From Candidatus Bipolaricaulota bacterium (lineage in GTDB: Bacteria; Bipolaricaulota; Bipolaricaulia; Bipolaricaulales; Bipolaricaulaceae), in NCBI GenBank assembly GCA_021163465.1, contig JAGGWU010000187.1, positions 1 to 27,319 on the forward strand: 27,319 bases of DNA, written 5' to 3'. The notes under the pieces were generated by a model. That model had not been told where the DNA came from and did no database searches. It worked only from the letters and a program-made list of their open reading frames with translations. Below, piece by piece: positions 1 through 20,362 of this stretch; position 1 is the first letter of the stretch, and each line of letters starts with the position of its first letter. The translations under genes and the position numbers were made by a program.

Positions 1-291
1 CAGACGCACCGCCCCCACTGGGAGGTCCACGTCGTCGTGGACCAGAAGGAGGTCTTCAGGGCTCAAGGGGCTCCACGCCAAAAGCTCCCGGACCGCCTCC
101 CCGGAGCGGTTCATGTAGGTTAGGGGCTTGAGCAATAAGCGGTCACCGAAGCGGAAGACCTCCCCCCATGGAAAAAGGTAACGTTCCCAATCTCCCTCCA
201 TCCGGAGGCGGTCCACGACCCAGAAGCCGAGGTTGTGGCGGGTGAGGGCATATTCGGGGCCGGGGTTCCCCAGCCCCACCACCGCCCTCAA
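1..291 (-). CDS. pth: Peptidyl-tRNA hydrolase (partial; C-terminal part runs off the left edge)
   Basis: Not in the ORF track; translated manually from TTG at 291, which overlaps the rplY stop (TTGA): MRAVVGLGNPGPEYALTRHNLGFWVVDRL...KPLTYMNRSGEAV...LLLVHDDVDLPVGAVRL. Contains the Pth GLGNPG, TRHNxG, MNxSG and HDD motifs, in the usual position after rplY. Confidence 0.96.
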   Translation of the reverse strand, partial: MRAVVGLGNPGPEYALTRHNLGFWVVDRLRMEGDWERYLFPWGEVFRFGDRLLLKPLTYMNRSGEAVRELLAWSPLSPEDLLLVHDDVDLPVGAVRL

Positions 292-917
292 GACTCCCCT
301 TCCTCCTCGGGGGGTGCCTCGGCCGGGGCCTCGGGGGCCTCAGCGGCCTCTTCCTCCTCGGCCTCCTCCGTCACCAGGACCTTGGGCGGGAGGATGTTCA
401 CCACCGCCTCGTCCTCGGGAAGGAGGGGGCGCAGTCCCTCGGGGAGGGGAAGATCCTTCACGAGGAGGGCCTCGTCCAGGCCGAGCCCCGAGATGTCCAC
501 CTCGATGTAAGGGGGTATCGCCTCCAGGGGTCCTTCCACGGGGATCTCCTCGTGGATATGCTCCAGGATCCCCCCGGCCTTGACCCCGGCAGGGGTTCCC
601 ACCAATCGGATCGGGACTTCCAGGGACATGATCTGCCCCGGCTCGGGGGCATAGAAGTCGACGTGGATGAACCTATCGGTGATGGGGTCCCGCTGGAGCT
701 CCTTGATGAAGACGAAGTGCCGCTCGCCGTCGTACTCCAGCTCGATCCTGGTAGAGCGGGTGATCTCGGAGATGAGCCGCTCCAGGGCCTTGTACTCCAC
801 CGCGATGGGGGTACTCACAAGATGGGGCCCATACACCACGCCGGGGACCCAGCCCTGGCGCCTCAGGGCCCTGGGCTTTTCGCTGTCGGAACGTTTTCGC
901 GCCGCGATCTTTGCCAT
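288..917 (-). CDS. rplY: 50S ribosomal protein L25/general stress protein Ctc (long TL5 form)
   Basis: LRRQGWVPGVVYG, ELQRDPITDRFIHVDFY, VPIRLVGTPAGVKAGG, acidic tail; GGAGGT Shine-Dalgarno upstream of the ATG. Confidence 0.96.
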   Translation of the reverse strand: MAKIAARKRSDSEKPRALRRQGWVPGVVYGPHLVSTPIAVEYKALERLISEITRSTRIELEYDGERHFVFIKELQRDPITDRFIHVDFYAPEPGQIMSLEVPIRLVGTPAGVKAGGILEHIHEEIPVEGPLEAIPPYIEVDISGLGLDEALLVKDLPLPEGLRPLLPEDEAVVNILPPKVLVTEEAEEEEAAEAPEAPAEAPPEEEGES

Positions 918-933
918 GCCGGTTACCTCCTCG

Positions 934-2028
934 CTAACGGCCCCGCACCAAAAGCTCGCTTATCGAAAGGCCGAGGTAGATCCTTATGATCGCTTCCGCC
1001 AGATCGTCCGCCACCGAGACCACCTCTACCAGCGGATGGCCTTCCGCGGCGGTTTGGGGAATGGTATCCGTGACGATAATCCGGCTCAAGGGGGAAGCCT
1101 CGATGCGTTCGAGGGCGTCCCCGGCGAAGATCCCGTGAGTGCAGGCAGCGTACACCTCCTTGGCCCCCTGCTCTATGAGCCTATCCACCGCCCGCAGGAG
1201 CGTCCCCCCGGTGGAGAGGATGTCGTCCACGAGCAGCACCCTTTTGCCCTTCACGTCCCCGATCACGAGCAGGACCTCCAACTTCCCTCCGTCGAAGCGC
1301 CGTTTGGCCAACGTGGCGAAGCCCGGGGACTGTAACCGCTCCGCCACCCGCCGCGCCCGGAAAAGCCCCCCGAGGTCCGGGGAGACGACCACGAGGTCCT
1401 CCAGCCAGTCGGGGTGGTGTGCCCGGATATGGCGGGCGAAGAGGTGGTCGGTGCGCAAATGATCCAGGGGGATGTCGAAGAAGCCCTGGATCTGGCTCGC
1501 GTGGAGCTCCACGGCGAGGACCCTGGTGGCCCCGGCCCGCTCGATCAGGTTCGCCACAAGACGTGCCGAGATCGGGACGCGGCCCTCGGTCTTGCGGTCC
1601 TGACGGGCGTAGCCGAAATAGGGGACCACGGCACAGATCTTTTCCGCCGAGGCCCGCTTCAGGGCGTCTATCAGGAGCAATAGCTCCATCAGGTGGTCGT
1701 TCACGGTCTTCGGGCCCGGCTCCCCGGGGGGCGTGCCCTGACGCGGGGGACAGGTGGGTTGGATCACGAAGACACACTGGCCGCGTACCGTCCTCTCCAC
1801 GTGGGCGTAGACCTCGTTGTCGGGGAAATATTTGACCTTTGCCTCACACCAGACGTCCTCGAACTTCAACGGGTCCCTTACCCCCTCGAGGGGCGCGCCA
1901 CGCCGCTCCCGGAGGACCTCGTCGATGAACTCCACGTATCTTGTGTTGAACTTCTCCACCACGAGCTCCGCCACCTTCCGGGCGAGGTCCGGGTTCGCGT
2001 TCCCCGCGACGATCCTCAGGCCGTTCAC
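934..2028 (-). CDS. prs: Ribose-phosphate pyrophosphokinase (PRPP synthetase) with two N-terminal-domain insertions
   Basis: VNDHLMELLLLIDALKRASA, PYFGYARQDRK, LHASQIQGFFDIP, SPDLGG, KRR, VDDILSTGGT, THG; glmU-prs-rplY-pth order. Confidence 0.96.
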   Translation of the reverse strand: MNGLRIVAGNANPDLARKVAELVVEKFNTRYVEFIDEVLRERRGAPLEGVRDPLKFEDVWCEAKVKYFPDNEVYAHVERTVRGQCVFVIQPTCPPRQGTPPGEPGPKTVNDHLMELLLLIDALKRASAEKICAVVPYFGYARQDRKTEGRVPISARLVANLIERAGATRVLAVELHASQIQGFFDIPLDHLRTDHLFARHIRAHHPDWLEDLVVVSPDLGGLFRARRVAERLQSPGFATLAKRRFDGGKLEVLLVIGDVKGKRVLLVDDILSTGGTLLRAVDRLIEQGAKEVYAACTHGIFAGDALERIEASPLSRIIVTDTIPQTAAEGHPLVEVVSVADDLAEAIIRIYLGLSISELLVRGR

Positions 2029-3375
2029 CTAAGCTCCCCCCTTGTTTTTGGCCCAATCGGGCTTTATCACCTGGCGGGCGCGGCCGAGGGCCAACGCGTA
2101 CGGGGGCACATCCTCGGTGATCACCGATCCCGCCCCCACGATCGCCCCCTCGCCCACGGTGACCGGGGCCACGAGGGAGGTATTGGAACCGATGAAGGCG
2201 CCCTTCCCGATCACGGTCCTGTGCTTGCGTACCCCGTCGTAATTGCAGGTGATGGTCCCGGCACCGATGTTCGTCCCCTCGCCCACCTCGGCGTCGCCGA
2301 TGTAGGCCAGGTGACCCGCCCGCACCCCCTCTCCGATATCGGCGTTCTTGACCTCCACGAAGTTCCCGATCCGGGCCCCTCGGCCGATCCGCGCCCCGGG
2401 GCGCAGGTGCGCGTAGGGGCCAATTCGTGCCCTTTCCTCCACGTACGCCCCTTCCAACACCGAGAACCAGATTTTGGCCTCCCGCCCGACGGTGGTGTCC
2501 ACAAGATACGCCTGGGGGCCGATCTCACATGCCGCGGCGATCTCCGTCCTCCCGTAGAGGTAGACCCCCGGGTGGAGCACCGTGTCCCCGCCCACGGCCA
2601 CGTCGGGCCCGATGTAAACCGTGCGGGGATCGACCACCGTGACCCCGGCCTCCTGGAGCCGGCGGATGATCCGACCCCGCACCAGCTCCCCGGCCCGGGC
2701 GAGGTCGCCCCGCGTACGCACCGCCAGAAGATCCCCCGGCTCGGGCCACGGGACCGCGTGGACTTTGGGGTAGAGGGTGGGGACGAGCTCGGCGAGGAGG
2801 GCTCCTGAGCTGCACCCGGGGGGAAGCCCCTTCAGGGCTTCCCATGTCTCGGGGACGTTCTCCAAGAGGAACACAGCGGCGGCGGCCTCGCGGGCTCCCG
2901 TCCCGGTGTCCTCGGTCACGATGGTCTTGGGGGTTCCGGACTCGTCCCGTATTACCCTGGGATAGCTCCCGGCATCCCCCGGATCGAAGGTGAGGAATGA
3001 GAGGAGGGCCTCTTGGGCTATGTGCTCACGCAGGAGCCGCTCCAGGGCCTTGGGAGAAAGCAAGGGGTGGTCTCCCGGGAGGACGAGGAGCCTCGGGGCC
3101 GTCACCGCACCCTGGATGGAGCCGAGGCAATGCCCCCTTCCCCCAGCCTCGATAGCCGGGATCCCGATACCCCGGCGGGCGAGTGCCTCGCGGACCTCGG
3201 CGGCCCCTTTGTCCACGATCAGGACCATCCGCGCCGGGGAAAGCTCGGAGGCCACGCGGATGACGTATTCAAGGAGGGTTAGCCCCAAAAGCTCGTGGAG
3301 GATCTTTGGGCGTTGGGATACAAACTCCTTCTCTCCGCCCGCGGCAAGGATTACCACATCCAGCGAGTTCTCCAT
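2029..3375 (-). CDS. glmU: GlmU-like protein: intact glucosamine-1-phosphate N-acetyltransferase (left-handed beta-helix) domain, degenerate N-terminal uridyltransferase domain
   Basis: Start placed at ATG 3375 (MENSLDVVILAAG); the ORF-track extension to 3648 overlaps yidD antisense. The C-half has IGPYAHLRPG, GNFVEVKN, GHLAYIGDA, NIGAGTITCNYDG, GSNTSLVAPV, LGRARQ. The stop is directly adjacent to the prs GTG. Confidence 0.92.
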   Translation of the reverse strand: MENSLDVVILAAGGEKEFVSQRPKILHELLGLTLLEYVIRVASELSPARMVLIVDKGAAEVREALARRGIGIPAIEAGGRGHCLGSIQGAVTAPRLLVLPGDHPLLSPKALERLLREHIAQEALLSFLTFDPGDAGSYPRVIRDESGTPKTIVTEDTGTGAREAAAAVFLLENVPETWEALKGLPPGCSSGALLAELVPTLYPKVHAVPWPEPGDLLAVRTRGDLARAGELVRGRIIRRLQEAGVTVVDPRTVYIGPDVAVGGDTVLHPGVYLYGRTEIAAACEIGPQAYLVDTTVGREAKIWFSVLEGAYVEERARIGPYAHLRPGARIGRGARIGNFVEVKNADIGEGVRAGHLAYIGDAEVGEGTNIGAGTITCNYDGVRKHRTVIGKGAFIGSNTSLVAPVTVGEGAIVGAGSVITEDVPPYALALGRARQVIKPDWAKNKGGA

Positions 3376-3465
3376 TCCCACAATGAATATATCCTGGGGG
3401 AACCCGGCCCACAACGCCAGGGGCCCCCTTTGCTCCCCCGTGGTGAGGGAGTAAAAATGTGAAGT

Positions 3466-3702
3466 ATGAGGAAGGCTTTGGTGTTGCTGATCCGTTTTTA
3501 CCAGCTCTTCATCTCCCCGGCCCTGCCCAAGCGGTGCCGGTTTTATCCCACCTGTTCTGAATACGCGCGGGAAGCGATCCTTATGCACGGGGTGATCCGG
3601 GGCGGGTGGCTTTCCCTGAAGCGGATCGTGAAGTGCGGCCCATGGCATCCCGGGGGCTACGATCCCGTGCCCGAGCCCAGGCAGGGGAAGAGGGGGCTAT
3701 AA
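3466..3702 (+). CDS. yidD: Membrane protein insertion efficiency factor YidD
   Basis: [48 protein letters not shown] are diagnostic YidD motifs. Confidence 0.96.
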
Positions 3703-4094
3703 TGGAAGAAGGGATCATGGGGACGTTTCGGTATCCGATCGTGGTTTACGGCCCCGAGGGGAAAAACAAACGGGAGATCCAAGCGTTGGTGGACACCGGT
3801 GCCACCTACACCTGGATCCCCCGTCCGATCCTCGAGGACCTGGGCTACCGGCCTTCCTTCAAGCAGCGACTGCGCCTCGCCGATGGAAACATTATCGTTC
3901 GCGACGGCTGCGAAGCGGTGGTGGAGATCGATGGCGCGCGGCGCACTACGGTGGTGATCTTCGGCGATCCGGATTCGGAGACCCTCCTGGGCGCGGTGAC
4001 CCTGGAGCAGTTCTCCCTGGCGCCCGACCCGGTGACGAAGCGCCTGATCCCGGTGGAGGCGCTCCTCATGGGGTTCCTCGACCGCCCTTCTTGA
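3702..4094 (+). CDS. Clan AA (retropepsin-like) aspartyl protease, AF_0612-like
   Basis: ALVDTGATYT catalytic DTG motif, RLADG flap, LLGAVTLEQF motif. Start is either ATG 3702 (TAATG overlap with the yidD stop) or ATG 3717. Confidence 0.85.
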   Translation: MEEGIMGTFRYPIVVYGPEGKNKREIQALVDTGATYTWIPRPILEDLGYRPSFKQRLRLADGNIIVRDGCEAVVEIDGARRTTVVIFGDPDSETLLGAVTLEQFSLAPDPVTKRLIPVEALLMGFLDRPS

Positions 4095-5265
4095 GCACCA
4101 CCTCCTCGAACTCCCGCCGCACCTCTTCATAAAAGCCCGGGACGAGCCAGAGTTCCAACGCCACGGCCGCCAGCGCCTTGGCGGCGGCGATCATCCCCTT
4201 GCGCGCTTCCTCCGAGCGGGCGGCTTGGGCGAACTCGCGGGAGTGGCCCGGGGTGCCGGTGGGGGCGATCTTGATATAGGGGTGGATGGCGGGCACCACC
4301 TGCGATACATCCCCCATGTCGGTGGAACCCATACCGCCTTTAGGGGGGTCGATCTCGAAGCCCAGTTCCTCGATGTTCTTGCGGAAGGACTGGGCCAGGT
4401 GGTGGTTGGGGCGCATAGATTTGTACTCGTGGCCCACCCGGGTGAAGGTGAGTTTGGCCCCCGTGGCCAACGCGGCCCCTTCGGCGCACTTGCGGAGCTT
4501 TTCCACCAGTTCCTCTTTATAGTCGTCGTCGATATCCCGCACGTAAAAGAGGGCGGCGGCGTACTCGGGGACGATGTTGGGCTTGGTCCCCCCGTGGGTG
4601 ATGATCCCGTGGATCCGGGCCCCGTCCCTGATGTGCTGGCGCAGGGCGTTCAGGCCCACGAAGGTTTGGATCACGGCGTCCAGGGCGTTGATTCCCTCCT
4701 CGGGGCTGCCGGAGGCGTGGGCGGCCTTCCCATGGAATTCGATCTTCACCTCGGTGATGGAAAGCGACCCCCGCTCCACCAGGGTTCGGTCGGCCGGGTG
4801 CACCATCATAGCTACGTCCACATCGGAAAAGACCCCGGCATCGATGAGCTTGATCTTTCCCCCACCGCCTTCCTCGGCGGGGGTTCCGATCACCATGAGC
4901 TTTCCCGGGAGGGTTTCCTTGAACGGAGCAAGTCCCAATCCTGCCCCCAGGGCGATGGCCGCGATGATGTTGTGGCCACAGGCGTGGCCCAGCTCGGGGA
5001 GCGCATCGTACTCGGCGAGGAAGGCCACCGCGGGGCCCTCGGCTTGCGTGGGGTGTACCGCCACGAAGGCGGTCTCCATGCCCCCTACCCCCCGCTCGAC
5101 CCGGAAGCCCCCTTTCTTCAGGGCCTCGGTCAGCCAGGCGGCGGCCTTGTGCTCCTCGAACCCCAGCTCCGGGTTCTCATGGATCTTCAGGGCGATGTCC
5201 CAAAGCTCATCCGCGATCTCATCGATCCTTTTCCAGACCTCCGTCTTCACCTGGGATAGATCCAT
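4066..5265 (-). CDS. M20 family metallopeptidase/amidohydrolase (ACY1L2/PM20D2/AbgB-like)
   Basis: IHENPELGFEE, AEYDALP, HACGHNII, GTPAEEGGGGK, MVHP, GKAAHA, GSTDMGDVS, GHS. Start placed at ATG 5265 after GGAGGT. Confidence 0.92.
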   Translation of the reverse strand: MDLSQVKTEVWKRIDEIADELWDIALKIHENPELGFEEHKAAAWLTEALKKGGFRVERGVGGMETAFVAVHPTQAEGPAVAFLAEYDALPELGHACGHNIIAAIALGAGLGLAPFKETLPGKLMVIGTPAEEGGGGKIKLIDAGVFSDVDVAMMVHPADRTLVERGSLSITEVKIEFHGKAAHASGSPEEGINALDAVIQTFVGLNALRQHIRDGARIHGIITHGGTKPNIVPEYAAALFYVRDIDDDYKEELVEKLRKCAEGAALATGAKLTFTRVGHEYKSMRPNHHLAQSFRKNIEELGFEIDPPKGGMGSTDMGDVSQVVPAIHPYIKIAPTGTPGHSREFAQAARSEEARKGMIAAAKALAAVALELWLVPGFYEEVRREFEEVVLKKGGRGTP

Positions 5266-7210: not shown

Positions 7211-8059
7211 ATGCAACGTTGGGTGGATTTGCACCTGCATACCAAGTGGTCCGACGGGACGTTGGACGTCGTGGCCACGGCCCGGCGGGCAAAGAACGCG
7301 GGGGCCGCCTGCATCGCCATTACCGATCACGACACCGTCGGCCCGGAGCTCCTACGCCCCCACCAGGTGATCGAGGGGATCGGGGTGATCTGTGGGGTGG
7401 AGATCAAGGCGGAGGTGGCGGGGGTGCGGGCGGAGATCCTGGGATACTTCGTCCGCCCGGGCCATCCCGCCCTGGAGGAGCTCTTTTCCCGGATGAGGAG
7501 GGCCAGAGTAGAGAGGATGCAAGCGATGATTGCCCGCTGCAACGAACTTTTGGGAACCGATATCACCTACGCAGAGGTAGCGGCCCGGGCCACCGGCTCG
7601 GTGGGACGGCCGCATCTGGCCGCGGCCCTGGTGGAGCGGGGGCTTGTGGACACCATCCGTGAAGCTTTCGAGACCTACATCGGGAACGATCGGCCTTGCT
7701 ACGTCCCCCTCCCCCGGGCAAAGAGCGAGGAGGTAATCGGTGCCATCCGGGCCGCCGGGGGGGTGGCGGCCCTGGCCCATCCCGGATTCCTGGCCATCGA
7801 AGATTGGGAAGGGGTGCTCCTGGGACTGAAGGACCAGGGCATGGAGGCCCTGGAGGTCTATTACCCCTACGAGCTCTCCACCGCCCCGGTGTACATCGGG
7901 GTCCCGGAGCTCGAGCGGCTGGCGAAGAGGTTGGGCCTTGTGGCCACCGGGGGCTCCGATGACCACGGCCCGGGTTCGGGCAAAGAGTACCTGGGGCGGA
8001 TTAAGCTCCCTTATGCCGTGGTGGAAGAGCTCGCGGCCCTCGCCCCTTCCACCGCGTGA
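7211..8059 (+). CDS. PHP domain metal-dependent phosphoesterase (TrpH/YciV-like)
   Basis: DLHLHTKWSDG, AITDHDT, GVEI, GRPHLA, LAHP, EVYY, TGGSDDHG. Confidence 0.92.
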   Translation: MQRWVDLHLHTKWSDGTLDVVATARRAKNAGAACIAITDHDTVGPELLRPHQVIEGIGVICGVEIKAEVAGVRAEILGYFVRPGHPALEELFSRMRRARVERMQAMIARCNELLGTDITYAEVAARATGSVGRPHLAAALVERGLVDTIREAFETYIGNDRPCYVPLPRAKSEEVIGAIRAAGGVAALAHPGFLAIEDWEGVLLGLKDQGMEALEVYYPYELSTAPVYIGVPELERLAKRLGLVATGGSDDHGPGSGKEYLGRIKLPYAVVEELAALAPSTA

Positions 8060-11270: not shown

Positions 11271-11701
11271 AGGCCCGGGAGCTCATGCGGCGCGATCTCA
11301 CCTCGGTGGAGCCCGATACCTTGATCCACGAGGCCATTTACCTCATGGAGCAGGCGGGGCTTTCCACCCTCCCGGTGGTGGACGAGGAGGGGAAGTTGGT
11401 AGGGGTTATCACCGAGCACGACCTCATCCACGCCGCCCTTCCCGAGTACTTCGAGATGCTCCACTCGATCTCTTTTCTCCCCAATTTGAACCAGGTCCAG
11501 AAGCGCCTCAGGGAGATGGCGTTCAAGCCCGTCTCCGATTACATGAAGGAGGCCCTCTCGGTACGCCTGGACGACGAAGACCTCCACATCGCGGACCTCC
11601 TCATCCGCAAGCGCCTGAAGCAGATCCCGGTGGTGGACGAGGAGGGGAAGCTGGTGGGGGTCATCCGCCGTATCGATATCCTTTCGCGCCTCGTGCGCTG
11701 A
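11267..11701 (+). CDS. Stand-alone tandem CBS domain protein
   Basis: Two CBS repeats, each with PVVDEEGKLVGVI. GTG 11267 overlaps the kinase stop (GTGA); the stop overlaps the dinG ATG (TGATG). Confidence 0.9.
   Translation: MKARELMRRDLTSVEPDTLIHEAIYLMEQAGLSTLPVVDEEGKLVGVITEHDLIHAALPEYFEMLHSISFLPNLNQVQKRLREMAFKPVSDYMKEALSVRLDDEDLHIADLLIRKRLKQIPVVDEEGKLVGVIRRIDILSRLVR
11371..11665 (+). repeat. 40-bp direct repeat inside the CBS gene (copies 11371-11410 and 11626-11665)
   Basis: cccggtggtggacgaggaggggaag(t/c)tggt(a/g)ggggt(t/c)atc; 37/40 identical, and the three differences are synonymous. Confidence 0.85.
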
Positions 11702-14181
11702 TGGAGTTCTTCGCGCTGGACCTCGAGACCACGGGGCTTGATCCCCGGAAGGACGAGATCCTGGAGATCGCTTGGGTCCGGTTCTTGGAAGGAAGGCCCC
11801 GAGAGCGCTTTCAAACCTTGGTGCGTGTCGCCTTCCTCCCCAAGGAGGTCGAGGTCCTCACCGGGATCTCCCCGGAACGGCTCCGGCGGGCACCACCGCT
11901 TCCCGAGGTGCTGCCCGGGGTCCTCGGGAGGCTGGCGGGCAAGGTGGTGGTGGCCCACAACGCCCCCTTCGACCGCGCCTTCCTCCAACACGCCGCGGCC
12001 CGGTTGGGCCTTGAGCTTCCGGAGATCCACTGGGTGGACACCCTGGCCATCTCCCGGGCCATCTGGCCGGAGCGGGAAAGCCACGCCCTGCCCGCCTTGA
12101 GGGAGGTCTTGGGGCTTGAGGACCGAGAGGCCCACCGGGCCCTTCCCGACGCCGAGGCCACCGGCTACCTCTTCCTCGAGGAGCTCGCCGCCTTCCCCTA
12201 TCTTCCCGAGCCCACCCGAGCCTTCATCCTCCGCGGGGTGCCGCCCCCGGCCCGGGAACTCCTCGCGGCGGGGCGCAAGGAAGGGGGAAGGGAAAAAACC
12301 GTGCTCGAGGAGGTCTTTTCCCTCCTTTCCCGGAAGATCCCCGGATTCCAGCTGCGGAAGGCCCAACTCGGTTATGCCGCTTGGGTCGAACGGGCCCTAA
12401 GGGAAGGGGGGGTCTATCTTCTGGAGGCCGGCCCGGGAACGGGCAAGACTTATGGGTACCTCGTTCCGCTCCTTTTGGCCCCGGAGGGCCGCGCCGTGAT
12501 ATCCACCCGCACCAAAGCCCTACAGGACCAGCTTTGGCACCGGGATCTCCCGGCCCTTCGGGAAGCCCTGCGGGCCGACGTCCGGGTCGCCCTCCTGAAA
12601 GGCTTCGACAACTACCTCTGCCCCTGGGCCTTGGAGCGGGAAGGGGGTCTCTTTTCGGGGCCCCTCAGGAAGCGGATCCGGGAGTGCCTTTCCGAGGTAG
12701 AAAACCCCGAGGTGGGGGAACTCTATAAGATCTTGGGCTTCGATCCCGAGGCCCGTGCCCTGGTGGAGCGGATCCGAGCCCGCCCCCACCGCTGTCTGGG
12801 AAGGGAGTGTCCCTTCCTTTCCCGCTGTCCCCCCCGCCGCGCGCGAAGATCCGCTCAGGAGGCCGAGATCGTGGTGGTGAACCACTCGCTCCTCGTCGCC
12901 GATTTCCTCGCGGGGGGCGGGATATTGGGGGAGTACGAGGTCCTCATCGCCGACGAGGCCCACTCCCTCCCCAAGGCATTCGAGGAGGGCCTCACGCGAT
13001 CCATCTCCCCCGCCGATGTGGCCGCGCTCCTGGAGGAGATCGAGGCGATGCTCCCTCAACTCGTTCCCCGGAGGGAGCTGCGAGGGGTCTGGGCCGAGCT
13101 GCGCCGGCTCCGCGAGCGCCTCCACGCCCTCCTCCCCGATGAGCCCGCACCTTACTCCCGCAGGGAGGGGCTGCGCTTCCTCTCCGCGGCCCAGGAACTC
13201 ATCTGGAAGTTGGTGGCACTCAAGGGGGCCCTGGAAGAGGGGCTGTCCGCGCTGGAGGGGGAAGAAAAAGGGATGGCCTCCGGGGAGATCGCCGCCCTCG
13301 AGAACTTGGTTTCCGAGATGGAGTACGTGTTGGCCGCTGAGGGCGAGGAGGTATTCTGGAGCGAGAAGGACCCGGACATCCGGTTCTACGCCACCCCCTT
13401 AGAGTTCGGCGACCGCCTCGCCACGGATTTCTGGGGGCGGATACGTGCCGCGATCCTCACCTCGGCCACCCTTTCGGTGGGGGGAAGGGTCGATTTCCTG
13501 GTGCGGGAGCTCGGGCTCGGGAATGCCATCCACCGCGTCTTCCCCGCCCAAGAAAAGGAGCGTCGGGGGCGCGTGTTCCTCTTGGAGTTCTTCCCCGGAC
13601 CCAATGAGGGCGGTTACGTTTCGGCCCTGGCGCGGCTCCTTTCGGAACTTCGGGAGAGGTTCCGGCGCAAGATCATGGTGCTTTTCACCTCTCGGAAGAT
13701 GCTGCGGGCGGTACGGGAAAGGCTGCCCCAGGAGGGGGTGATATCCCAGTTGGATTGGGGCGATGCCGCACAGGCGGTGGAGGCCTTCCGGGCAATGGAT
13801 GCCCCCGCGATCCTGTTGGGATTGGACAGCCTCTGGGAGGGAGTCGACTTCCCCGGGGAGGAGCTGGAGATCCTGGTGGTGGCCCGACTCCCCTTCCCCA
13901 ATCCCGCCGATCCCCTGATAAAGGCCAAGGAGGAGAGGCTCCGCGCCCAAGGGCTTGACCCTTTCCGTGCCCTTTACCTTCCCCGGGCCGTCCTCAAGCT
14001 GGCCCAGGGGGTGGGACGTCTCCTCCGTACCCCCGAGGACAGGGGCGCCGTGATCGTGGCCGACCCCCGTATCGTTGCCCGCCCCTACGGCGAGGTCTTC
14101 CGGGCCAAACTCACCCTCCCCACAAGGACGGTGGGGGACCTGGAGGAGCTCCTCTTTGCCCTCGAGGAGGTCTTCTCATAA
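11701..14181 (+). CDS. dinG: DEDDh 3'-5' exonuclease fused to a DinG/XPD-family helicase with an Fe-S motif
   Basis: ALDLETTG, HNAPFD, HRALPDA (DnaQ-like); EAGPGTGKT, STRTKALQDQL, VVNHSLL, DEAH, LTSATL, LWEGVDFPG, RLPFP, QGVGRLLR; cysteines YLC...CLGRECPFLSRC. Confidence 0.9.
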   Translation: MEFFALDLETTGLDPRKDEILEIAWVRFLEGRPRERFQTLVRVAFLPKEVEVLTGISPERLRRAPPLPEVLPGVLGRLAGKVVVAHNAPFDRAFLQHAAARLGLELPEIHWVDTLAISRAIWPERESHALPALREVLGLEDREAHRALPDAEATGYLFLEELAAFPYLPEPTRAFILRGVPPPARELLAAGRKEGGREKTVLEEVFSLLSRKIPGFQLRKAQLGYAAWVERALREGGVYLLEAGPGTGKTYGYLVPLLLAPEGRAVISTRTKALQDQLWHRDLPALREALRADVRVALLKGFDNYLCPWALEREGGLFSGPLRKRIRECLSEVENPEVGELYKILGFDPEARALVERIRARPHRCLGRECPFLSRCPPRRARRSAQEAEIVVVNHSLLVADFLAGGGILGEYEVLIADEAHSLPKAFEEGLTRSISPADVAALLEEIEAMLPQLVPRRELRGVWAELRRLRERLHALLPDEPAPYSRREGLRFLSAAQELIWKLVALKGALEEGLSALEGEEKGMASGEIAALENLVSEMEYVLAAEGEEVFWSEKDPDIRFYATPLEFGDRLATDFWGRIRAAILTSATLSVGGRVDFLVRELGLGNAIHRVFPAQEKERRGRVFLLEFFPGPNEGGYVSALARLLSELRERFRRKIMVLFTSRKMLRAVRERLPQEGVISQLDWGDAAQAVEAFRAMDAPAILLGLDSLWEGVDFPGEELEILVVARLPFPNPADPLIKAKEERLRAQGLDPFRALYLPRAVLKLAQGVGRLLRTPEDRGAVIVADPRIVARPYGEVFRAKLTLPTRTVGDLEELLFALEEVFS

Positions 14182-17012: not shown

Positions 17013-18274
17013 TGGGGATGGAATTGGCGGAAATCCGCAACAAACCTCTCGATGAACTCGTGGAGCTCGCAAAGGAACTGGGAATAAACGGAACCGGTGA
17101 GATGGGGCTATATGAACTCCAACTCGCGGTGGTGAAGTCCTTTGCCTCCCGTGAGGAGCTTTATGCCGAAGGGGTCTTGGAGATCGTGACCTCCGACAAC
17201 AACACCTTCTTCGGCTTCCTCCGGGACAAATCCTGCCTCCCCTCCCGCTATGACGTCTACGTTTCCCCCTCCCAAATCCGGCGTTTCAACTTGAAGAACG
17301 GCGACATCGTCCGGGGGTTGGTGCGTCCGCCGAAGAACGGGGAGAAGTACTTTGCCCTTCTCAGGGTGGACGAAGTGGACGGGAAAGATCCCGAGGTGGT
17401 TCGCCGCCGCCGCGATTTCCACGAGCTCACCCCATTACACCCCAACGAGCAGTACGTTCTGGAACACGACCCGGACGAGCTCTCCACCCGGATGATCGAT
17501 CTCTTCGCCCCCATCGGGAAGGGACAGCGGGGCCTGATCGTCTCGCCCCCCAAGGCGGGAAAGACCACCCTCCTCAAGCACATCGCCCAGGGGATCGAGG
17601 AGAACTACCCCGACGTCAAGCTCCTGATCCTCTTGGTGGCGGAGCGTCCCGAGGAGGTCACCGACTTCAAGAGGTCGGTGCGGCGGGCAGAAGTGGTGGC
17701 CGCCACCTTCGACATGGAACCCCACCACCACACCCGGGTGGCGGAGCTGGTGACCGCCGAGGCCAAGCGCTTGGTGGAGGTAGGGTACGATGTGGTGATC
17801 TTGATGGACTCCCTGACGCGCCTCGCCCGGGCGTATAACCTCTCGGTTACTCCATCCGGGAAGCTGCTTTCGGGCGGCATCGATCCCACCGCCCTCTACA
17901 AGCCCAAGGAGTTCTTCGGGGCGGCGCGGAACATCGAGGAAGGGGGATCCCTCACCATCATCGCCACCGCCCTCATCGACACAGGCTCCCGTCTGGACCA
18001 GGTGGTATTCGAGGAGTTCAAGGGGACGGGGAACATGGAGCTCGTCCTCAACCGGGACCTGGCCAACAAGAGGATCTTCCCGGCCATCGACCTGCTTCAG
18101 TCCGGGACGAGAAAAGAGGAACTCCTGCTCGAGCCGGATGTCCTTCGCAAGGTCCACATCCTGCGGCAGTTAATCGGTAACATGGAACCGGAACAGGCGC
18201 TCCTTTTCATCATGAACAAGATGAGGCAGACCAAGGACAACAAGCAGTTCCTGGAGCTCATGAACAGTGAGTAA
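17012..18274 (+). CDS. rho: Transcription termination factor Rho
   Basis: [102 protein letters not shown]. Start is ATG 17012 or 17018; AGGAGG at 17001. Confidence 0.98.
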
Positions 18275-19121
18275 AGAGCTTTTGGTGATAATCCTGGCGC
18301 TGGTCCTCTTGCCCCTGGCGGTGGTGGGTGTCCTCGACGTCCCTTCCGAGCCGCCCCAGAAAGACCTGGGTGGCCCGTTGGGTATCTCGCCCGCCCAACC
18401 CTTCACCACCTACCGGGTGCGGCCGGGGGACACCCTCGCGGGCCTCTCCCGTCGCTACGGTATCCCAATCGAGTACATCCAGGCCAGCAATTACATCGCC
18501 GATCCCAAGGAGCTCCGGGCTGGATCGGTGATCGTGCTTCCCCGGGGAGGGGTCGTTCACGTGGTGAAGGAGGGGCAGACCTTAAGCGATATCGCCGCGG
18601 CTTACGGCGTAAGCGAGTTCGACATCATCGCCGCCAACGATCTCGCGGGGTTGCCGCTTCCGGGGGATAAGCTCCTCATTCCACACCCTGCTTCCATCCC
18701 CTGGCTGGAGGCATTGAAGCTCGGTTGGCGCCCCGATTCCCGCTTTATCTGGCCCCTACGGGGTCGGCTCACCTCCCTCTTCGGCCCCCGGATACATCCC
18801 ATCTTCGGCACCCCAGATTTCCATACCGGGATTGACTTCGCTGTGCCCGAGGGAACGGAGGTACACGCCGCCGCCGCGGGAAAGGTGAGCTTCGCCGGGG
18901 AGCGGGGCGGATACGGCCTTTTGGTGGTGGTGGAGCATGGGGACGGCTTTTCCACTTACTATGCCCACCTTTCGCGTATCCTGGTGGAAGCGGGACAGTT
19001 CGTGGAACAGGGACAGGTGATCGCCCTATCCGGCAATACCGGCATCTCCACCGGGCCACACCTGCACTTCGAGATCCGCCGCCACGGGAAGCCCGTGGAT
19101 CCCCTGCCGTGGCTTCCGTGA
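18267..19121 (+). CDS. LysM x2 plus M23 family metallopeptidase (peptidoglycan endopeptidase) with N-terminal membrane or signal segment
   Basis: Hydrophobic N-terminus; YRVRPGDTL and HVVKEGQTL LysM repeats; HTGIDF (HxxxD), YAHL, STGPHLHFE (HxH). Confidence 0.92.
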   Translation: MSKELLVIILALVLLPLAVVGVLDVPSEPPQKDLGGPLGISPAQPFTTYRVRPGDTLAGLSRRYGIPIEYIQASNYIADPKELRAGSVIVLPRGGVVHVVKEGQTLSDIAAAYGVSEFDIIAANDLAGLPLPGDKLLIPHPASIPWLEALKLGWRPDSRFIWPLRGRLTSLFGPRIHPIFGTPDFHTGIDFAVPEGTEVHAAAAGKVSFAGERGGYGLLVVVEHGDGFSTYYAHLSRILVEAGQFVEQGQVIALSGNTGISTGPHLHFEIRRHGKPVDPLPWLP

Positions 19122-20362
19122 TGGTCATCCGGGGCGGCCGACCCCTTTCGGGTCGGGTGGAGGTCTCCGGGGCCAAGAACGCCGTCCTCCCCGCCATCGT
19201 GGCCTCCCTCCTCATCGATGAACCACTGACGATCGGAAACGTCCCCGACCTCAGGGATGTGGAGACCCAACTGGCCTTGGTAGAGGCCCTGGGCAAAGCG
19301 ATAAGCCGGGATGGGGATACCCTCGTCATAACGGGCGAGGCTTCGCGCGCGGAGGCCCCGGAGGAGGTGGTCTCCAGGATGCGGGCCTCCTTCCTTTGTC
19401 TCGGTCCGCTCCTTGCCCGCTTCGGGGAGGCCCACGTGCCCCTCCCCGGCGGATGCGTCATCGGGGCCCGTCCGGTGGACCTGCACCTTGAGGGGCTGCG
19501 GAGGCTGGGGGCGGAGGTGGAGGTGTGCGAGGGGGTGGTGCACGCCCGCGGGAGGCTCCACGGGGGCGAGGTCTGGCTGCGTTATCCTTCCGTGGGCGCG
19601 ACGGAACAGCTGCTCCTCGCGGGGGCGGTGATACCCGAGCCGGTGGAGGTGGTTAATCCGGCGCGGGAGCCGGAGGTGATGGACTTGGCGCGGCTCCTCT
19701 CGGCCATGGGGGCCGAGATCTCCTTCTCCGAGGACAGGATCACGATCCAAGGGGGGAAATTGCGGGGCACGGGGCACCATGTGATACCCGACAGGATCGA
19801 GGCCGGGACGTATCTCCTCGCGGGGGCGATCACCGGGGGAGAGGTGGAAGTGGCGGGCGCCCGTCCGGAACACCTCACCGCCCTCTTGGTCAAGCTGGAG
19901 GAATGTGGCGTTGGGATCGCTGTTGAGGGGCGGACCATCTGCCTGAAGGCCCGGGTCCCCTGGTCCGGGGTGGAGGTGGAGACCGCCCCCTATCCCGGCT
20001 TTCCCACAGACCTCCAGCCCCAGTTCACATCTTTCCTTGCGCTTGCCCGGGGGCGGAGCGTGATCTGGGAGCGGGTGTTCGAATCCCGGTTCGGGCACGT
20101 GGGGGAGCTCCTGAGGATGGGGGCCCGAATCACCCTCCAGGGACAGGCCATCCTCATCGAGGGGGTGGAGGGCTTGCGGGGGGCGGAGGTGGTGGCCACC
20201 GATATCCGCGCCGGGGCCGCGTTGGTGCTGGCGGGCCTCGCCGCTCACGGGGAAACCAGGATAAACGGACTGGACCACCTGCGACGGGGATATGAGAATA
20301 TAGAGGGGAAGCTAGCCCAACTCGGGGCGGAGGTATGGGTAGAGGAACTCAACGTTACTTGA
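19118..20362 (+). CDS. murA: UDP-N-acetylglucosamine 1-carboxyvinyltransferase
   Basis: SGAKNA, MRAS, LPGGCVIGARPVDLH (active-site Cys present), PSVGATE, DRIEAGT, PGFPTDLQPQ, FESRF, TDIRAGA, RGYE. Start is GTG 19118 or ATG 19121. Confidence 0.96.
   Translation: MMVIRGGRPLSGRVEVSGAKNAVLPAIVASLLIDEPLTIGNVPDLRDVETQLALVEALGKAISRDGDTLVITGEASRAEAPEEVVSRMRASFLCLGPLLARFGEAHVPLPGGCVIGARPVDLHLEGLRRLGAEVEVCEGVVHARGRLHGGEVWLRYPSVGATEQLLLAGAVIPEPVEVVNPAREPEVMDLARLLSAMGAEISFSEDRITIQGGKLRGTGHHVIPDRIEAGTYLLAGAITGGEVEVAGARPEHLTALLVKLEECGVGIAVEGRTICLKARVPWSGVEVETAPYPGFPTDLQPQFTSFLALARGRSVIWERVFESRFGHVGELLRMGARITLQGQAILIEGVEGLRGAEVVATDIRAGAALVLAGLAAHGETRINGLDHLRRGYENIEGKLAQLGAEVWVEELNVT

Follow-up and report, generated by a model that had tools for sequence, protein, structure and literature searches.

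How does a bacterium that appears to need UDP-N-acetylglucosamine (UDP-GlcNAc) manage with a GlmU whose uridyltransferase half looks dead? As an antibacterial target, GlmU is regarded as essential, bifunctional, and nearly universal: its C-terminal (C) half makes N-acetylglucosamine-1-phosphate (GlcNAc-1-P) and its N-terminal (N) half joins it to UTP. The question is raised by a glmU gene in a stretch of 27,319 nucleotides of Candidatus Bipolaricaulota DNA (contig JAGGWU010000187.1 of assembly GCA_021163465.1), the whole of which we call the window, and for which an original prediction had proposed a split pathway behind a normal-looking glmU-prs operon. Through a comparison of about 280 genomes, we found that the uridyltransferase motifs of this GlmU have been lost while its acetyltransferase motifs are intact, that related genomes form a graded series of the same decay, and that a nucleotidyltransferase (NTase) of the family of Protein Data Bank (PDB) structure 3PNN is found in the lineages concerned. 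This comparative evidence supports the proposed split and supplies a candidate for its second enzyme: in the reading that we hold to be probable, though well short of secure, the window GlmU is a monofunctional acetyltransferase, and the 3PNN-family NTase encoded on contig C161 of the same genome makes UDP-GlcNAc.

Loss of uridyltransferase motifs in an otherwise conserved GlmU

The source genome (G000) is a 1.40-Mb Bipolaricaulota/Acetothermia metagenome-assembled genome of 187 contigs with a completeness of 84.7%. Its glmU ortholog occupies positions 2029..3375 of the reverse strand, inside an open reading frame (ORF) that spans 2029-3648 (-); the 448-amino-acid (aa) protein starts at the ATG at 3375 (MENSLD...), as it does in close relatives, and ends at the TAG at 2029-2031. 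GlmU of S. pneumoniae, M. tuberculosis, and E. coli are its closest PDB matches. The protein scores 392.8 bits against the TIGR01173 GlmU model (cut-off, 366.85 bits) versus 480-552 bits in intact relatives, and its margin over the cut-off comes mainly from the C half.

Three parts can be delimited within the protein. The N-terminal nucleotidyltransferase-fold domain (residues 1-228; 2692..3375, reverse strand) is defined by the motifs, hidden Markov model (HMM) scores, ratios of nonsynonymous to synonymous substitution (dN/dS), and AlphaFold2 (AF2) model described below. An interdomain linker helix follows (residues ~229-250; 2626..2691, reverse strand), placed by an AF2 helix at 222-242 and by alignment to GlmU structures, and the remainder is the left-handed beta-helix (LbH) glucosamine-1-phosphate acetyltransferase domain (residues ~251-448; 2032..2625, reverse strand), recognized by its motif blocks and C-domain HMM.

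We aligned the protein residue by residue to GlmU active-site residues, with S. pneumoniae GlmU and intact Bipolaricaulota GlmUs as motif references, and every N-half substitution listed in the original prediction lay where it had been placed. The signature LAAGKGTRMxSxxPK has become LAAGGEKEFVSQRPK (residues 10-24, nt 3304-3348), with G16/T17 lost, K25 kept, and R18, which we take to be the catalytic arginine of E. coli GlmU, changed to glutamate; the protein thereby lacks the R18-containing N-terminal GlmU signature. The motif Q..QLGTGHA reads IPAIEAGGRGHC (residues 72-83; Q76 to A, T82 to R, G81 kept), YGR reads YPR (GSYPRV, residues 136-141; G140 to P), IVE reads IVT (IVTEDTG, residues 152-158; E154 to T), E(V/I)N(S/T)G reads EAAAA (REAAAAVF, residues 162-169; N169 to A), and GVNxR reads AVRTR (residues 218-222; N227 to R), and the whole GEYYLTD block is lost, with SGALLAE in its place (SSGALLAE, residues 189-196). 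The equivalents of LAAG, K25 (PK), G81, and D105 (LPGD) are retained, the last two being the only ones kept among eight uracil-, GlcNAc-, and metal-site positions. Structures of M. tuberculosis GlmU, in which the equivalents Q83, G88, T89, D114, G149, E166, and N239 belong to the substrate site, show that the counterparts of Q76 and G81 contact uracil, those of D105 and K25 contact the ribose, and those of T82, G140, E154, and N227 line the GlcNAc site (PMC9105790). The N half is best described as a putative pseudo-enzyme domain, predicted to have lost both the binding of UTP and GlcNAc-1-P and uridylyl transfer.

The acetyltransferase half, by contrast, is conserved throughout, as had been claimed from the sequence. 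All of the beta-helix motif blocks are intact (HLRPG, GNFVEVK, AGHLAYIGDA, NIGAGTITCNYDG, KHRT, FIGSNT, VAPV, GAGS, and PDWAK), and the active site, meaning the His363 equivalent and its surrounding blocks, is identical or nearly identical to that of intact GlmUs. The histidine whose mutation kills acetyl transfer in M. tuberculosis GlmU (PMC4619583) is among the residues kept. With HMMs built from intact Bipolaricaulota GlmUs, the C domain of the window protein scored 338 bits, within the 295-350 bits spanned by all genes, whereas its N domain scored 176 bits versus 320-372 bits in intact genes. Because its identity to the intact GlmU of a congener, G089, is 52% over residues 1-228 and 88% over residues 251-448, chance drift of the whole protein does not account for the difference. 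We predict from these motifs that the window GlmU performs acetyl transfer only.

Selection is divided along the same line. N-half and C-half dN/dS values, estimated by the NG86 method and rough at the synonymous divergences involved (dS, 0.6-1.0), were 0.38 and 0.16 between the two decayed genes of G000 and G049, 0.54 and 0.11 between G000 and G089, and 0.20 and 0.10 for the intact pair G089 and G033. Selection on the N half is relaxed, yet not absent, and the C half is under strong purifying selection.

Since the source is a fragmented assembly, the derived motifs could in principle come from faulty sequencing or assembly, or from a chimeric bin that contains a pseudogene. However, the glmU frame has no stops or frameshifts, its C half is strongly constrained, and the same motifs recur in a 98%-identical contig from an independent hydrothermal-vent metagenome (P0004) and in G049 (same genus, 73% identical, 47.7-kb contig). 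As far as sequence data allow, we reject an artifact, which we regard as highly improbable.

A graded series of N-half decay across the phylum

To follow the fate of the N half, one must be sure of comparing orthologs. In the window, prs (ribose-phosphate diphosphokinase; 934..2028, reverse strand; NF002320, 353.9 bits) begins with a GTG directly after the glmU TAG, its Shine-Dalgarno sequence GGGGGGAG lying inside the end of glmU, and the gene for ribosomal protein L25/Ctc (288..917, reverse strand; Pfam Ribosomal_L25p and TL5_C) completes the order glmU-prs-ctc. This glmU-prs synteny was present in 78/78 Bipolaricaulota orthologs examined, and because every GlmU-like gene of the phylum lies just upstream of prs, we consider them orthologous.

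Across our sample of 121 Bipolaricaulota genomes, the N half is intact in most of family f1 and in six genera of family f4, and in the window's own genus it is fully intact in G089. Another member of this genus, G033 (L010, G033:C19), is a point mutant that reads GKGAQM (T17A, R18Q) with its other motifs intact, a state that may represent the first step of decay. This genome carries a 3PNN-type NTase, and one public annotation (P0009) begins its GlmU at a methionine after the motif. The N half is partly decayed in G016, G048, and G077 and decayed in G000/G049, G104, and G028, each with different substitutions. It is unrecognizable, with deletions inside a frame of 416-710 aa, in genomes such as G024, G032, G038, G040, G069, and G072, and a stand-alone C half of 227-283 aa is all that is left in others (e.g., G087, G088, G109, G112, G117, and G066). 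Through all of these stages the acetyltransferase motifs are constant. Two apparent members of the series were discarded: the low N-domain score of G052 is due to an assembly gap, and the "partial" tree label of G043 is a threshold artifact, its motifs being intact.

Families f5 and f6 (L066 G071:C2; L206-L210) present the reciprocal case. There, the glmU upstream of prs encodes a protein of ~300-345 aa whose uridyltransferase half is intact and whose beta-helix is reduced to its first turns, the acetyltransferase active site having been lost. In families f2, f3, f8, and f10 (e.g., G003, G010, and G021), whose genomes are up to 90-96% complete, we found no GlmU-like gene, and a search for 3PNN-type NTases found none in these four families; the only GlmU matches there were weak ones to 355-400-aa proteins combining NTase and LbH regions (E ~1e-21, model positions 1-325). 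The premise of the original prediction that GlmU is normally the only bacterial route to UDP-GlcNAc is therefore too strong, given these N-half-only and GlmU-less lineages and the monofunctional enzymes of Bacteroidetes (PMC4358021).

The series bears on what the degraded N half might still do. Continued activity, either as a uridylyltransferase or as an NTase for another substrate with a remodeled active site, would be in keeping with the TIGR01173 score above cut-off and with the retained LAAG, K25, and D105 equivalents. Yet seven substrate or catalytic positions have changed, several of them to residues of opposite chemistry (R18 to E, G140 to P, and N169 to A), other substitutions or deletions affect these positions in sister lineages, and relaxed selection is confined to the N half. 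The site is also intolerant of change, in that the single mutation K26A abolishes uridyl transfer by M. tuberculosis GlmU (PMC4619583). We think it very unlikely that the domain remains active.

A non-catalytic role is harder to dismiss. The N half could have been kept as a structural or regulatory module, as the original prediction suggested, serving folding, solubility, trimer stability, ligand sensing, or the docking of a separate NTase. G000 and G049, whose proteins differ by ~27%, both keep the frame open, with N-half dN/dS well below 1 between these two decayed genes, and in the Aminicenantales, ORFs of 440-620 aa with a degenerate N half are found throughout a whole family. AF2 predicts a confident nucleotidyltransferase (Rossmann-like) fold over residues 1-240 (predicted local distance difference test scores mostly 75-96) in which the K25 and D105 equivalents are kept, although its input alignment held intact homologs, which biases the prediction toward the intact fold. 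These observations lend the idea some weak support, but relatives in families f4 and f7 shorten or delete the domain with their acetyltransferase motifs unchanged, a truncated M. tuberculosis GlmU-C retains acetyltransferase activity (PMC4619583), and the substitutions vary by lineage without any new conserved motif. The data agree no less well with a relic in slow decay, and we consider a structural or regulatory module rather unlikely.

Candidates for the second step

If the N half is indeed inactive, something else would have to make UDP-GlcNAc. The window encodes an intact murA, a consumer of UDP-GlcNAc (19109..20362, forward strand; TIGR01072, 493.4 bits at 19118-20338, above cut-off), and, next to it, a LysM + M23 peptidoglycan endopeptidase (18267..19121, forward strand; Pfam Peptidase_M23, 133.7 bits, LysM x2), so that profile matches and reading of the sequence confirm both of these genes, as well as the glmU-prs operon, as originally described. 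Elsewhere in G000 we found murG-like and glmM-like genes and a contig-end fragment of glmS. Given that all of these are present, UDP-GlcNAc is needed and the upstream steps of its synthesis exist. Relatives that have lost the GlmU N half also carry murA.

None of the alternative enzymes that had been suggested turned up. The G000 contigs (84.7% complete) contained no second GlmU, and the best match to archaeal-type GlmU (TIGR03992 Arch_glmU; cut-off, 292.1 bits) reached 113.7 bits over the N domain only. The UAP1/UDPGP profile (PF01704) had no match in G000 or in five relatives, but it also matched none of the control genomes, so that this search lacked a positive control.

What G000 does contain is a set of other NTase-fold genes. 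Three of these, the NTases of contigs C43, C65, and C161, were each used as a query across the phylum. The C161 gene (G000:C161:3849-4757) encodes a 303-aa NTase and is followed by a galactokinase gene, and the C43 gene (G000:C43:14804-15703) encodes a 300-aa NTase and follows a GT4 glycosyltransferase gene. The 241-aa NTase of C65 lies in a GmhB-NTase-HddA-like operon (G000:C65:1883-4026; L002) in which it takes the HddC position between GmhB (188.7 bits, above cut-off) and an HddA-like GHMP kinase. This arrangement suggests a GDP-D-glycero-alpha-D-manno-heptose pathway and a heptose-containing surface glycan. We rejected the C65 NTase as the substitute, since its operon points to GDP-heptose and its distribution is out of step with GlmU decay.

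The remaining genes are an IspD (G000:C128), a MobA-like protein (G000:C7), and two fusions. The first fusion, a ManC-PGI/PMI protein in a ~700-aa ORF (G000:C46:7401-9617, reverse strand), joins a mannose-1-phosphate guanylyltransferase-like NTase to a phosphoglucose/phosphomannose isomerase-like half of SIS type and is of equal length in G028 and G049. The second is an inositol-1-phosphate cytidylyltransferase/CDP-alcohol phosphatidyltransferase (IPCT-DIPPS; G000:C106:367-1629), whose counterpart in G087:C4 (L071) adjoins a gene resembling that for myo-inositol-1-phosphate synthase. (Hyper)thermophiles use di-myo-inositol-phosphate as a solute, and the gene fits the vent origin.

The C161 NTase accompanies N-half decay

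NTases of the C161 type were found in 40/121 Bipolaricaulota genomes, namely in genera g1, g8, g10, and g12 of family f1, in g20, g22, g24, g26, g35, g37, and g40 of family f4, and in g25 of family f7. It is these lineages whose GlmU N half is damaged or missing. Comparing the 40 carriers with the 43 NTase-negative genomes in which GlmU could be scored, we found the NTase in one genome with an intact N half (G089, whose NTase is cut by a contig end) and not in 40 others; in the single R18Q point mutant (G033); in two partly decayed cases and not in a third (G077); in all four decayed cases; in 13 genomes with an unrecognizable N half in a full-length ORF and not in one (G057); and in 19 that lack the domain and not in one (G095). 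The genomes of the three exceptions are 82-87% complete; congeners of G077 and G095 carry the NTase, and G057 is the sole sampled member of its genus. In G087, which has a C-half-only GlmU and an intact murA, we found only two PF00483-type genes, one for IPCT-DIPPS and the other for the C161-type NTase.

Because G089 and G033 hold both enzymes, the order of events suggests itself as gain of the NTase followed by decay of the N half. In the scenario we propose, the lineage would first have held both enzymes, as G089 and G033 still do, and redundancy would then have relaxed selection on the GlmU N half, leading to its decay here and to its deletion in other families of the phylum. Today, the trimeric beta-helix half of the window GlmU would make GlcNAc-1-P, the N half would still fold but would neither bind UTP and GlcNAc-1-P nor transfer the uridylyl group, and the C161 NTase would carry out the reaction GlcNAc-1-P + UTP -> UDP-GlcNAc.

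A similar association can be followed outside the phylum. We examined 50 NTase-carrying genomes from other phyla at a GlmU match threshold of E<=1e-30. No GlmU match was found in 35 of them, which include Bacteroides, Prevotella, Porphyromonas, Phocaeicola, and Blautia isolates, and six had a clean full-length match. One member of the Anaerolineae had a full-length ORF that passed the cut-off only via separate N and C pieces, one genome had an N-terminal match only, and seven had a C-terminal match only: four in ORFs of 377-582 aa (two Acidobacteriaceae, one Aminicenantales, and one Defluviitaleaceae), two in short ORFs, and one cut by a contig end. Among 61 evenly sampled Acidobacteriaceae, 55 have a full GlmU and two carry the NTase, and one of these two carriers, G173, has the only C-half-only GlmU of the family sample (462-aa ORF). 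This tally takes in two unpublished genomes, G172 and G195, both with a full GlmU and no NTase, and the observation stands without them. The Aminicenantales carry the NTase in 51/51 genomes, and a clean full-length match was found in 0/46 of their GlmU-like genes; all matches begin at about position 160-230, in frames of 297-792 aa that are mostly 440-620 aa long.

Identity of the 3PNN-family NTase

The C161 NTase matches 3PNN over its full length (E 4.6e-88, residues 4-302), a structure deposited from P. gingivalis as a "conserved domain protein" with no assigned function. Among the curated family models, we found none that covers it. The motifs AAGxGSR[FY]GGxKQ and NADDFYG form invariant columns in the family alignment, and the family is widespread, occurring in Bacteroidales, Lachnospiraceae, Acidobacteriota, Chloroflexota, Verrucomicrobiota, and Bipolaricaulota.

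We surveyed the neighbors of the NTase in 80 loci from other phyla. A homolog of NahK (N-acetylhexosamine 1-kinase; E 7e-83 to 4OCU) is adjacent in 18/80 loci, as well as in G087 and G088, and a GalE-type 4-epimerase is adjacent in 18/80. This gene context points to hexosamine-1-phosphates as likely NTase substrates. The simplest reading is of a candidate UDP-sugar or UDP-N-acetylhexosamine (UDP-HexNAc) pyrophosphorylase that would be fed by anomeric kinases and would also take GlcNAc-1-P from the GlmU C half.

Two other clues to the family's identity were discarded. Adjacency to galactokinase is confined to Bipolaricaulota family f1 and is no family-wide clue, and identity with MurU was rejected, as the family has no MurU model match and Bacteroides has a separate MurU-like gene beside an AmgK-like kinase gene. 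AmgK is reportedly absent from P. gingivalis, from which 3PNN comes (PMC7670621). The Bacteroides ilei locus (L169, G121:C1) encodes a 475-aa protein with an AmgK-like kinase region and a C-terminal RapZ-like region; the gene immediately downstream encodes a MurU-like NTase of 245 aa.

Several observations weigh against the assignment of UDP-GlcNAc synthesis to the C161 NTase. On the C-domain tree, we counted 8-9 changes in the state of the N half and 7 in the presence of the NTase, but the genomes are related, and the three independent contrasts counted on well-supported branches (two concordant, none discordant; p 0.5) are underpowered. Many NTase carriers keep a full GlmU, which shows that the NTase does not force decay, and the N-half dN/dS of ~0.4 indicates that the domain is not drifting freely. 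The next solved relatives of the C161 NTase are GalU-type UDP-glucose pyrophosphorylases at E ~1e-4 only, and a literature search found no paper on 3PNN. In family f1, including G000, the neighbor is a galactokinase (E 8e-55 to 1PIE) rather than NahK, and the NTase may have UDP-Gal or UDP-Glc as its first job here, with GlcNAc-1-P as a side substrate. The genes for a MurU-like NTase and an AmgK-like kinase lie side by side in the Bacteroidales of our sample, and a monofunctional GlcNAc-1-P uridyltransferase is known from C. canimorsus (PMC4358021), so that the lack of GlmU in these Bacteroidales cannot be credited to the 3PNN family alone. Finally, with G000 only 84.7% complete, the true substitute may be unassembled.

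This last point leads to the possibility that the second step falls to another enzyme, either the C43 NTase or a gene in the missing 15% of the genome. Archaeal enzymes of the C43-like type are promiscuous, and the C43 NTase scores 96 bits against positions 1-260 of Arch_glmU and 103 bits against rmlA_long. Its distribution fits poorly, though: C43-type orthologs occur in many genomes with an intact GlmU and were not found in many that have lost the N half (g22, g35, most of g26 and g37, G087, and G088), and the C65 type is likewise mismatched with decay. We judge a different substitute to be unlikely. The C161 NTase is thus the candidate that we retain. Whether its relatives share this role is a larger question. 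That the 3PNN family is a general UDP-N-acetylhexosamine pyrophosphorylase, one that has repeatedly displaced the uridyltransferase half of GlmU, is an idea we hold tentatively, with slightly more doubt than belief. If true, such displacement would have left behind pseudo-domains, C-half-only GlmUs, and GlmU-less genomes, and the family would be the enzyme that completes UDP-GlcNAc synthesis in many bacteria where the last step is missing, common gut taxa included.

Other features of the window

The Prs proteins of this genus have two lineage-specific insertions, one of ~33 residues after the first helix (residues ~27-59) and another, of ~13 residues (PR-QGTPPGEPGPKT), that lies in the N-terminal domain. 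G089, G033, and G049 share the two insertions, G104 has shorter versions, and neither occurs in the other aligned relatives. Positions 11701-14178 of the forward strand encode an 826-aa protein that joins an RNase_T/DnaQ-like exonuclease domain, at the N terminus, to a C-terminal domain of DinG-type helicases. Two window ORFs, 7211-8056 (forward strand, 282 aa) and 3657-4127 (reverse strand, 156 aa), had no Pfam match at E<=1e-6.

Comparison with known systems

The window protein resembles the bifunctional GlmUs of E. coli, S. pneumoniae, and M. tuberculosis (1HV9, 1G97, and 3SPT) in its orthology, two-domain layout, glmU-prs linkage, and acetyltransferase motifs, and it differs from them in that its uridyltransferase signature and its uracil-, GlcNAc-, and metal-site residues have been replaced. 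Annotation pipelines give this gene the name "bifunctional GlmU", which can hide an apparently half-dead enzyme.

That the two halves can work apart is already known. The E. coli variants del78 and Tr331 are described as showing that the halves work autonomously (Pompeo 2001, as cited in PMC4358021), and together with M. tuberculosis GlmU-C and K26A (PMC4619583) they are examples of an acetyltransferase half that works without a functional N half. These are laboratory constructs, whereas the window case is natural, multi-site, and part of a graded evolutionary series.

Natural monofunctional forms are also known in Bacteroidetes. GlmUCc of Capnocytophaga canimorsus (Ccan_15070; UniProt F9YR13) is a monofunctional GlcNAc-1-P uridyltransferase, and genera with the LbH_C half alone have been reported (Renzi et al. 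2015, PMC4358021). As a natural stand-alone enzyme of uridylyl transfer, GlmUCc is the closest parallel to the role proposed for the C161 NTase. GlmUCc, however, was found through its likeness to the GlmU N domain, whereas the C161 NTase has no TIGR01173 match, the two being set apart here by description only; moreover, C. canimorsus has no acetyltransferase and is a GlcNAc auxotroph, whereas the window organism keeps its acetyltransferase. The homologous structure 3PNN was already solved, and its link to GlmU decay is proposed here.

A further parallel is found in the salvage routes of NahK with GlmU or AGX1 and of the Bifidobacterium GNB/LNB pathway (NahK-GalT-GalE), which likewise combine an anomeric HexNAc kinase, nucleotidyl transfer, and a 4-epimerase. 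The transfer step in Bifidobacterium is made by a GalT-type uridylyltransferase, where 3PNN-family loci have a pyrophosphorylase of the NTP_transferase fold.

Compared with all of these, what appears to be new is the full-length pseudo-domain state, with all intermediates in one phylum, and its link to the 3PNN family. Nature has separated the two activities of GlmU many times over, this phylum preserves every stage in between, and there is now a concrete candidate for the takeover of UDP-GlcNAc formation, in the form of a large family of solved structure to which no function has been assigned. Confirmation of this candidate would close a gap in metabolic reconstructions of Bipolaricaulota and Aminicenantes, and possibly of gut Bacteroidales and Clostridia, and would provide a clear natural case in which non-orthologous displacement was followed by the decay of a domain.

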